A DNA stretch of 64,000 nt from an uncultured Acidobacteriota bacterium (GCA_937898755.1 CALEJU010000025.1:16000-79999), one strand, 5' to 3'. Counted from the first letter of the stretch, positions 19,282-63,166 are shown. Notes: generated by a model not told the origin, from the sequence alone. Numbers and translations are program-made.

Positions 19282-20154
19282 ATGCCAAAGATTCGCACTC
19301 TTGTTCGAAGCGCCATACTTGCCGTGCCCACTGTCTTCGTCCGCTCCTACGAGCGGGCTGTCGCCTCAATGCGGCCAGCATTGAAAGGTGTGGTGTGCGG
19401 TCATATTGTTGACGATATTTTTACTCGCACGGAGATTGTACACCATAATAATATCGATCTTCGCCTTTCGTGTCCGAACTCCACGACGGTGTTTCGTGCG
19501 CGAACTTTCTCGCAAAAGGAACCCGAGACACTGGAATGGGTCGACGGCTTTATGCCAGATTCCGTCTTTTGGGATATCGGAGCAAATGTCGGATTGTATT
19601 CCATTTATGCTGGACTGCGACACTCGGGGCTGCGGGTATTTTGTTTCGAGCCATCCGTTCTTAATGTCGAATTGCTTGCACGAAATATTGTTCTCAATGG
19701 GGTTAAGAGCCAACTTTGTATTGTTCCAACACCACTGAGTGATAAGAGCGGTCCGAGCGTGTTTCGCCTGGGAAAGCAGGATCGCGGCGGTGCGTTGTCC
19801 GCATTTGGTGTCGACTTTGGATACGATGGACGCCCTATTATTGCTGACCTAGATTTTGAACTCCTGGGTTTCGCCGCCGACGATTTACTCGGATATGGAG
19901 TGCCGCCGCCTAATTATATTAAACTCGACGTGGATGGAATCGAGCACCTGATACTCCGCGGAGCAGGGAAGATACTGGCGAACAGGACTGTGAGATCTGT
20001 TCTCGTTGAGGTGAATGATGATTTTGCCGAACAGAGAGACCAAGTAGCCATGATCCTCACGGCGAGCGGCTTCCGTCTACGGCAACATAGTCACGGAAAA
20101 ATGTTTGATAACTCGGTGTTCGGGAATACGTTCAACAACATTTGGGTGCGCTAA
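19282..20154 (+). CDS. FkbM-family methyltransferase
   Basis: FWDIGANVGLYS, FCFEPS, PNYIKLDVDGIEHLILRG; visibly AT-richer than the flanks. Confidence 0.9.
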   Translation: MPKIRTLVRSAILAVPTVFVRSYERAVASMRPALKGVVCGHIVDDIFTRTEIVHHNNIDLRLSCPNSTTVFRARTFSQKEPETLEWVDGFMPDSVFWDIGANVGLYSIYAGLRHSGLRVFCFEPSVLNVELLARNIVLNGVKSQLCIVPTPLSDKSGPSVFRLGKQDRGGALSAFGVDFGYDGRPIIADLDFELLGFAADDLLGYGVPPPNYIKLDVDGIEHLILRGAGKILANRTVRSVLVEVNDDFAEQRDQVAMILTASGFRLRQHSHGKMFDNSVFGNTFNNIWVR

Positions 20155-61606: not shown

Positions 61607-62281
61607 TTAGCCGCAGTCAGCCAGCACCCACGCCAGCAGTTCGGAAGCTGTGAAGTCCGAGATGGTGTGCTTCGCTCCAGCGGCCGTAAGAACGTGCGCC
61701 GGCTGTGTGCTGGTAACGCCGACGCAGCGCATCCCGGCGGCGCACCCGGCTTGGATGCCGGCCACCGCGTCCTCGACGACCGCGCAGGTGGCCGCGGCGC
61801 ATCCCAGCTTCGCTGCCGCAAGGAGATAGACTTCGGGGTCCGGTTTACCGCGACTCACGTCCTCGGCACTCACGTGGCCGTCAAAAAAATGCTCGAGATG
61901 CAATTCCTGGAGCATCAGTTCGAGATTGGCGCGGGGCGCGGAGGTGGCAACTGCCAATCGCAATCCATGGTTGCGCAATTGCTGTAGAAAGCCATGCAAG
62001 CCGGGGAACGGTTGAACCCGCCCACGAATCGCATCGCGAAAGAGGAGCTCCTTTTCGGCGGCGAGGGACTGTAAGCGCGCGGCGGGCAGCGGCCCGAGAA
62101 AATGGCGGAGAATGTCGACACTGATGCGTCCTCCCAGTCCATATTCCAACTCCGCGTCGCTGAGTTGCAGGCCCTCGCGCCGCGTGAGCGCCCGCCAAGC
62201 TTGCAGGTGAAAGGGATTGCTGTTGACCAGCACCCCGTCCATGTCGAACAGGACAGCACGGCAAGGGGACATAGGATCCAA
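61607..62281 (-). CDS. HAD-family phosphatase (beta-PGM-like)
   Basis: FDMDGVL, VATS, GKPDPEVY, VEDAVAGIQA. Confidence 0.92.
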   Translation of the reverse strand: MDPMSPCRAVLFDMDGVLVNSNPFHLQAWRALTRREGLQLSDAELEYGLGGRISVDILRHFLGPLPAARLQSLAAEKELLFRDAIRGRVQPFPGLHGFLQQLRNHGLRLAVATSAPRANLELMLQELHLEHFFDGHVSAEDVSRGKPDPEVYLLAAAKLGCAAATCAVVEDAVAGIQAGCAAGMRCVGVTSTQPAHVLTAAGAKHTISDFTASELLAWVLADCG

Positions 62282-62298
62282 GCGGGGAAGTAAATGAA

Positions 62299-62333
62299 AC
62301 CGCCCCTGCGAAGCGCAGCTTCGCAGGGGCGGT
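62299..62333 (-). terminator. Intrinsic terminator after the small basic protein gene
   Basis: Perfect 15-bp stem ACCGCCCCTGCGAAG / CTTCGCAGGGGCGGT, 5-nt loop, U-rich tail (TTCATTTACTT) on the minus strand. Confidence 0.8.
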
Positions 62334-62365
62334 GTGACGCTAACGATCAGCCACCGGAGGCGTGG

Positions 62366-62596
62366 TTACCCTTTCTTCGTTTGCGCGGCACGTGCCGCCC
62401 GCACTTTCGCCCAGCGCCGTTTCTGCGCTTCCGCGATACGGCGTCGGCCGGCCTCAGAAATATTGCGGCCTCCGCCACGCTTGGCCGGGCGTCCCGGCCC
62501 CCGCCCCTTTTCCAAACTGCGCAGCACGTCGAGAGCAGCTTCAATTCGCTTTCGCTGCTCCTCCAAGTCTTGAATCGCCTTACCAATAGTAGACAT
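62366..62596 (-). CDS. Small basic protein, putative nucleoid-associated/DNA-binding
   Basis: 76 aa; AAGGAG RBS; coiled-coil N-half, GRGPGRP, ISEAGRRRIAEAQKRRWAK; own promoter and terminator. Confidence 0.8.
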   Translation of the reverse strand: MSTIGKAIQDLEEQRKRIEAALDVLRSLEKGRGPGRPAKRGGGRNISEAGRRRIAEAQKRRWAKVRAARAAQTKKG

Positions 62597-62650
62597 TGCT
62601 CTCCTTGGATGGCGCAAACGCCCCTCGGCGCCGCGCTTTTAACTCACAGA

Positions 62651-62679
62651 CTTATATCTATGGTACGCCTGAATGTCAA
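62651..62679 (-). promoter_or_regulatory. Near-consensus sigma70 promoter
   Basis: TTGACA (62679-62674), 17-bp spacer, TATAAG (62656-62651) on the minus strand. Confidence 0.85.
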
Positions 62680-63089
62680 CTGGAACTTGTTGCAGTCAGT
62701 GTCAGGAAGGGCCGCTCACCCCCAATTGGGGGACAACAGTCGTAGGAGGGACCTGCCCTTTAACGAGCACATCCGGTACGAAAGCACACGTGATTGAACT
62801 TCCGCTGCGACCCTGAACTGAAATTCAATTACCTCGGTTGACTTGTTTCGGTCCAAGTCATGGCACCCGCCAAGCCGGGATTGAGGGAACGGATACGGCC
62901 CATGGCTCGCCGAGAAATACTCCTCGCGATTCCTCTGCGGTGCGGTATTGCCAATCGACTTGGATAAGGGCGCCAAATGAGCGTCAGAGGGCGTAGGCGC
63001 CGCGTGGACGAGGCGTCAGCGTCGCCGCGGCGGTTCCCCCGCCTGCGGGTCATGCCGCGGGCGCGCATGGGCTAAACTGGAAGCGGAGT

Positions 63090-63166
63090 CGGGGCGTAGC
63101 GCAGCCTGGTAGCGCACCTGCCTTGGGCGCAGGGGGTCGCCGGTTCAAATCCGGCCGCCCCGACCA
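63090..63166 (+). tRNA. tRNA-Pro (TGG)
   Basis: CGGGGCG/CGCCCCG acceptor, CCTGC-CTTGGGC-GCAGG anticodon arm, TTCAAAT, ACCA end. Confidence 0.95.

Follow-up and report, generated by a model that had tools for sequence, protein, structure and literature searches.

NUMOD3 is the minor-groove-binding alpha-helix of I-TevI, I-HmuI and I-BmoI (PMC3664794). A small basic protein of 76 residues, encoded near one end of the window studied here (the whole 64-kb stretch of DNA that was analysed), carries a helical module that shares with NUMOD3 the pattern basic-basic-x-hydrophobic-Ser-x-Glu/Ala-x-Arg/Lys-x-Arg/Lys-Ile/Met-Ser/Ala-x-Ala-x-Lys/Arg, the occurrence in tandem copies on short linkers, and a serine helix cap. 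However, proteins of the family to which it belongs have no nuclease domain, their modules being attached to a coiled coil or, in the case of one subfamily, to a SWIM protein. The family helix is also about 8 residues longer, ends in R-W-A-K where NUMOD3 ends in Gly-Lys-Lys, and has arginine in place of lysine throughout. Bacterial SWIM/SNF2 pairs are the second point of contact, as the same 26-residue module occurs in two copies in one SWIM subfamily, whereas the 76-residue protein has neither a SWIM domain nor a helicase neighbour and is linked to these systems by the module alone.

Two further systems resemble the protein in overall design. GapR of Caulobacter, which we take to be similar in general character, is likewise small (89 residues as against 76), basic, all-helical, a coiled-coil oligomer and the product of a lineage-wide core gene. 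No sequence relationship to GapR was found, and in the GapR tetramer DNA is encircled by the helices themselves, while in the 76-residue protein a separate tethered helix module is predicted to be the likely DNA contact. The bZIP factors, such as GCN4, likewise join an arginine-rich basic helix to a coiled coil of the leucine-zipper type, but in these the basic region is directly N-terminal to the zipper and continuous with it. Here the zipper comes first, a disordered linker of about 17 residues separates it from the basic helix, and the copies of the basic helix number one to four across the family. The features of the locus are as follows, in the direction of transcription.

62651-62679, minus strand: sigma-70-type promoter, read directly, with -35 TTGACA (62679-62674), a 17-nt spacer and -10 TATAAG (62656-62651)
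62597-62644, minus strand: predicted 5' UTR of about 48 nt, in which AAGGAG is followed by 4 nt and the ATG
62366-62596, minus strand: coding sequence of the 76-residue basic protein, stop codon included, from the ORF list
62507-62590, minus strand: N-terminal helix, residues 3-30, presumed dimerisation element (AlphaFold2, pLDDT 86-97)
62456-62506, minus strand: variable low-confidence linker, residues 31-47, which holds GRGPGRPAKRGGG (pLDDT about 51)
62390-62467, minus strand: 26-residue basic helix module, residues 44-69, RNISEAGRRRIAEAQKRRWAKVRAAR, seen in alignments and in hhalign against NUMOD3
62287-62333, minus strand: intrinsic terminator with a 16-bp perfect stem (62333-62299), a 3-nt loop and an interrupted U-tract

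The small gene extends from an ATG at 62596 to a TAA at 62368-62366, and its product has a pI of 11.8 and 22 lysine and arginine residues. An alternative TTG start, seven codons upstream, is also in the ORF list; the ATG was taken as the start because of the ribosome site and because the orthologues all open with MST or MSN. Transcription is predicted to begin near 62644. An earlier reading made from the sequence alone had described the gene as strongly promoted, with TTGACA-17-TATAAG and a strong ribosome-binding site, and on these points it holds up well: the hexamers and the AAGGAG are present as described, and the promoter is both rare and conserved. The 64-kb window has one TTGAC-N18-TATAA site where 0.01 would be expected, and the single TTGAC[AT]-N16-18-TATAAN site in the whole genome (3.74 Mb, 64% GC) is the promoter of the small gene. 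A consensus promoter scan around the gene returned 0 sites, since the scanner demands that the -10 hexamer end in T. Sites matching the TTGACA-16/18-TATAAT consensus at 11 or more of the 12 positions number 13 genome-wide; one other such site precedes a gene whose product resembles a small heat-shock protein at its N-terminus, by eye only. Among 20 close orthologous loci, the window counted, 12 have TTGAC[AT]-17/18-TATAAC at a similar distance from the start. The last -10 position in orthologues is consistently C, not T (TATAAC). The start region AAGGAGAGCAATG is identical in several orthologues, and conservation around the -35 and -10 elements extends past the hexamers themselves (ATTGACTTTT, CGCTATAAC). 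The genome-unique pattern, which orthologues retain along with a strong ribosome site, marks an unusually good promoter, the best consensus match of the genome, and suggests high constitutive expression. In the predicted fold of the 5' UTR a stem-loop leaves the ribosome site unpaired; at z = -1.2 this is not statistically strong, and a conserved leader hairpin was dropped as a candidate for want of statistical support.

At the other end of the gene, the terminator hairpin has a predicted energy of -34.7 kcal/mol and z = -6.0 against shuffled sequences, and is followed by the interrupted U-tract UUUCAUUUACUU. It had been reported as a 15-bp terminator; the hairpin is real, with a stem of 16 bp. 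The unit had also been called monocistronic. The gene does have a terminator and a promoter of its own, as implied by the tRNA-Pro(TGG) gene that lies upstream on the opposite strand (63090-63166), but the ATG of a HAD-type hydrolase at 62272 is only 27 nt past the terminator stem on the minus strand, and no promoter-like site was found between the two (62272-62299), so that some read-through is likely, although most transcripts probably end at the hairpin. The genes that follow, named from their translations only, are HAD-type, 2'-5' RNA ligase-like and two M16 peptidase-like, and they may depend on read-through of this imperfect terminator. The small gene and the tRNA-Pro gene diverge from an intergenic region of about 490 bp (62597-63089) with 59% GC; Rfam gave nothing there but the tRNA-Pro, no repeats were seen in it, and neither repeats nor palindromes were found near the small gene. 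Neighbouring genes differ between orthologues and between lineages. Across 159 loci there is no conserved functional partner gene, only close relatives share a gene order (an amidase upstream, a convergent ABC-2 transporter downstream), and no genomic association of the family with mobile or glycan genes was found.

This neighbourhood bears on the main rival to DNA binding, in which the protein is associated with RNA or the ribosome and uses its arginine-rich helix and tryptophan to bind rRNA, tRNA or mRNA, whether as an accessory factor of the ribosome or as a chaperone. The gene in the window adjoins tRNA-Pro and lies two genes upstream of the 2'-5' RNA ligase-like gene, it is nearly a core gene in its order, and its high product pI and its strong promoter and ribosome site are like those of ribosomal-protein genes. 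The motif is short, and an arginine-rich amphipathic helix with a conserved tryptophan could equally bind RNA; the helix presumably resembles arginine-rich RNA-binding motifs such as those of phage N proteins. However, the RNA-gene neighbourhood is not kept in orthologues, one to four modules per protein and several paralogues per genome are unlike what a fixed ribosomal site would call for, and the only similarities and fusions found at the level of the family (NUMOD3, SWIM/SNF2) point to DNA. On balance RNA binding is considered unlikely.

Structure prediction from the close-homologue alignment (AlphaFold2; pLDDT 82, pTM 0.35) gave helices at residues 3-30 and 48-75 joined by the linker 31-47, in agreement with the earlier proposal of an amphipathic N-terminal helix and a basic C-terminal one. 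From the alignment, the core of the N-terminal helix would be formed by hydrophobic residues at d4, a8, d11, d18, a22 and d25, with Arg or Lys at a15. This heptad pattern, together with the best match of the family profile in a search of the PDB, to GCN4-derived coiled-coil peptides at E = 0.2 only, suggests a coiled coil of 3.5-4 heptads. Coiled coils that have a polar residue in a central position of the core are usually dimers, and the conserved Arg/Lys at a15 therefore favours a dimer as the most likely state. PDB searches with the whole-protein and repeat profiles returned only coiled-coil noise (E >= 0.2), and Foldseek of the model against the PDB found no structural neighbour, as expected of a model made up of just two helices. 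In a relative with three repeats (P0056), helices were predicted at 4-31, 49-71, 84-104 and 112-132, with local pLDDT above 90 and a pTM of 0.30, as would be expected if the modules are tethered and not packed into one globular domain. Each repeat helix of this model begins directly after a conserved serine, which would make that serine (Ser47 in the 76-residue protein) the N-cap. The modules thus appear in the models as beads on a string rather than as a globular domain.

As read from the sequence, the surface of the C-terminal helix is cationic apart from a thin hydrophobic stripe formed by I54, A57, W62 and V65. Such a stripe could also serve a protein that binds no nucleic acid at all, its helix contacting polyphosphate, acidic lipids or an acidic protein while the coiled coil acts as an adaptor. 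This is judged improbable in view of the NUMOD3 similarity and the SNF2/SWIM fusion described below, the lack of any conserved partner gene, and a sequence in which no membrane or secretion signals were found.

The protein had been called uncharacterised, and scans of Pfam (E <= 10), NCBIfam and PHROG indeed gave no meaningful match. A word-indexed search nevertheless returned about 35 close homologues at 54-68% identity and a more distant set; the close homologues that bear a source name are hypothetical proteins of Terriglobales metagenome-assembled genomes. An exhaustive profile search, which the earlier reading had proposed as a means of learning the family's distribution, extended this to 8,899 representative clusters at E <= 1e-3, mainly of Terriglobia and Verrucomicrobiota (1,130 at E <= 1e-10), and the 76-residue protein itself scores 103 bits against the family profile. 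The family is thus large and undescribed, being absent from Pfam-A, NCBIfam and PHROGs as searched, and a literature search on the module motif found nothing. In its members an N-terminal coiled coil of about 4 heptads leads through a variable linker to a 26-residue basic helix, present in one to four copies, with the consensus KRx[LIM]SxxGRxRIAxAQKxRWAK. The close homologues end in a nearly invariant stretch, RNISxEGRRRIAEAQKRRWAKVRA, in which R51, R53, I54, A55, A57, Q58 and R61 are invariant and W62 is present in at least 90%. Among 200 family proteins collected, 102 are of 100-200 residues and contain two to four copies of this stretch, which identifies it as a repeat module; 87 non-redundant units gave the repeat consensus [KR]-R-x-[LIM]-S-x-[AE]-[AG]-R-x-[RK]-I-A-x-A-Q-[KR]-x-R-W-A-[KR]. 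The 76-residue protein has both parts of the family pattern, an N-terminal heptad helix and one [KR]Rx[LIM]SxxxRx[RK][IM]AxAQ[KR]xRWA[KR] unit. Some multi-repeat members have Ala/Lys/Pro-rich, histone-H1-like spacers between their modules.

Further loci were sought with a degenerate DNA pattern of the module, and all open frames found for the family are small. In the same order, named as Terriglobales from the homologue annotations, 22 of 23 sampled genomes have 1-6 matches each, so that the gene is close to a core gene there; outside this order the phylum seldom has the module, and the overall count is 29 of 301 sampled genomes. Named records are mostly Terriglobia (Terriglobales, Acidobacteriaceae, Candidatus Sulfotelmatobacter, Bryobacteraceae), and there are also Verrucomicrobiota (Prosthecobacter, Chthoniobacterales, Limisphaerales, and Verrucomicrobium sp. 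BvORR034, which has four family genes) and one Binatia genome. A 5.3-Mb genome labelled as a Bifidobacteriaceae MAG (G305/L103) has five module matches, including a SWIM fusion; its size and content suggest a doubtful taxonomic label or binning. The genome of the window itself contains a second family gene, also for 76 residues (contig 12, 118080-118262, minus strand, corresponding to L002 1462-1692, minus strand), with the product MNTSQLQKSLEELRREQTRLQEAIRTLEQLL...LSVEGRARISEAAKRRWEEH, no consensus promoter and a weak ribosome site. A mobile-element protein was ruled out, as tblastn of phage and plasmid collections gave no match, in a search where the BLAST low-complexity filter could mask weak matches.

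With the family defined, the proposal of a sequence-specific transcriptional regulator can be weighed, that is, a dimer setting two recognition helices on a defined operator, possibly in its own promoter. There is a loose likeness between the bZIP factors and a dimeric coiled coil that bears two basic helices, and the extended conservation around the -35 and -10 elements would suit such an operator. However, the residues presumed to contact DNA hardly vary, either among the thousands of paralogous clusters or from one repeat to the next, so that they offer no scope for specificities that differ; a long, variable linker with predicted disorder does not fix the spacing of the helices; and the absence of repeats and palindromes near the gene is also unfavourable. 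A regulator of this kind seems distinctly unlikely.

Identification of the module rests on comparison with NUMOD3, which was approached from several sides. The Pfam model (PF07460) gave no match to the 76-residue protein, its gathering threshold of 20.4 bits not being reached, and none elsewhere in the genome of the window. Among nine multi-repeat relatives searched against Pfam, NUMOD3 scored 18.5 bits in one (P0170) and 16.5 bits in another (P0063), both below the cut-off of 20.4, and when the 87 units were scanned singly NUMOD3 was the only family matched, in 6 of them. For direct alignment, 228 NUMOD3 units were taken from 120 GIY-YIG endonucleases related to one of the same phylum; the seed was a 218-residue GIY-YIG homing endonuclease with three NUMOD3 repeats (L092 1297-1953, minus strand, genome G090). 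By hhalign the family units matched these in register over columns 1-20 with a probability of 90.9%, a score of 21.4 and P = 1e-6, the motif being short and the in-register score being inflated because both sets had been cut by regular expressions with common anchors (Ser, two basic residues, Ile/Met/Leu). With column-permuted NUMOD3 as the null, scores averaged 4.5 and reached at most 8.7, and 0 of 150 attained the observed value; a 79-unit subset again aligned in register, over columns 2-19, at 82.8% probability and P = 9.4e-6. Since the helix runs on through RWAK past the point at which NUMOD3 ends in Gly-Lys, its binding geometry may differ. Taking this extension together with the common anchors, the short motif and the sub-threshold scores, the module likely works like NUMOD3, whereas its membership of the NUMOD3 family is unproven.

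An independent connection with DNA comes from a 340-residue SWIM zinc-finger protein (L216 1090-2112, minus strand), which carries two family modules as a C-terminal tail and whose SWIM domain (PF04434) scores 20.6 bits against a cut-off of 19.6. The same design, SWIM plus two modules, is common to four clusters, and on a 574-kb contig (L217 3198-7023) the SWIM-module gene lies directly downstream of a DUF3670-SNF2-Helicase_C gene, which makes the module an appendage on the partner of a DNA translocase. The alignment with NUMOD3, the beads-on-a-string helices of the models and the SWIM/SNF2 fusion all point to DNA binding. The H1-like spacers, the GRP-type linkers of a few members, and a genome with three HU/IHF-type genes but neither H-NS nor Lsr2 are further pointers in the same direction.

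The sequence-only reading had gone further, proposing a relative in function of H-NS and Lsr2 that grips DNA through an AT-hook-like GRGPGRP and silences AT-rich cassettes of a glycan locus. As a xenogeneic silencer the protein would polymerise on AT-rich acquired DNA, including parts of that locus. The two designs do share an oligomerisation helix, a flexible linker and a basic DNA-binding end; the genome, which has three HU/IHF-type genes, has no match to H-NS or Lsr2; the linker contains a GRP element; and helices of the minor-groove type generally prefer grooves that are narrow and AT-rich. For a helix of this kind such a preference is plausible. However, GRGPGRP lies in the linker, the most variable part of the protein. 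AT-hook-like elements are limited to 3 of the 35 close orthologues and 5 of the 200 family proteins, canonical RGRP is absent from both sets, and GRP-type linker elements are sporadic in the family (e.g., P0046). In the 76-residue protein GRGPGRPAKR includes GRP and not RGRP, the conserved R-G-R-P with basic flanks being what defines an AT-hook. The element may add affinity in this lineage, but the conserved candidate for DNA binding is the NUMOD3-like C-terminal helix and not a loop of the H-NS or Lsr2 kind.

Kinship with the known silencers fared no better. The Pfam model for H-NS (PF00816, Histone_HNS) matched neither the protein (E <= 10) nor anything across the genome (E <= 0.1), and the model for Lsr2 (PF11774) likewise matched neither. 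Where H-NS, Lsr2, MvaT and Rok have a folded DNA-binding domain with a Q/RGR loop, the protein is predicted to have a single helix. Filament-forming silencers such as H-NS and Lsr2 need two oligomerisation interfaces, and here there is just one short coiled coil. As for the supposed targets, GC content falls below 50% in a single stretch of the 64-kb window, of about 500 bp (19401-19900, minimum 48.5%), and the "AT-rich cassettes" in the glycan locus are AT-rich to a slight degree only. The missing association with mobile and glycan genes, and the absence of the family from phage and plasmid collections, also count against silencing. A role in xenogeneic silencing is speculative, and of the readings considered it is a very improbable one. 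The earlier interpretation was thus sound in outline, with its oligomerising helix, linker and basic DNA-binding end, and wrong in a key detail, as the AT-hook is not the conserved binding element.

We return to the preferred reading, that of an abundant, dimeric, sequence-tolerant DNA-binding protein of the nucleoid type with a NUMOD3-like helix, to which we give about an even chance. In this scheme the 3.5-4 N-terminal heptads would form a coiled coil, most likely a dimer, and each flexible linker of about 17 residues would carry one 26-residue arginine-rich helix (one to four tandem copies in relatives). I-TevI, I-HmuI and I-BmoI lay a NUMOD3-type alpha-helix in the minor groove of DNA, and the helix of the present protein may contact DNA in a comparably sequence-tolerant way, reading its shape. 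With such a helix on each chain of the coiled coil, the dimer would offer two binding helices on loose tethers, and could act as nucleoid-associated proteins do, by coating, bending or bridging the DNA.

To our knowledge nothing has been described of DNA packaging or global regulation in Acidobacteriota and Verrucomicrobiota beyond HU and IHF, and a literature search on nucleoid proteins of these phyla found nothing; both are among the most abundant soil bacteria. A broader proposal, offered tentatively as a possibility short of probable, is that the family constitutes a new class of bacterial chromatin protein, in which free-standing NUMOD3-type helices, one to four per chain, are multimerised by a coiled coil to give a major nucleoid protein beside HU in Terriglobales and Verrucomicrobiota, the module having been recruited separately, to anchor them on DNA, by homing endonucleases and by SNF2-associated SWIM proteins.

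In summary, comparative analysis of a small, strongly promoted gene has led from a supposed AT-hook to a repeated helix module in a family that is nearly universal in Terriglobales yet missing from curated libraries, and whose profile would let thousands of "hypothetical proteins" be annotated. If the protein binds DNA as proposed, it would represent a very simple new design of nucleoid protein, a coiled coil with tethered minor-groove helices, and the NUMOD3 helix, known only from homing endonucleases, would also be an independent cellular DNA-binding module.
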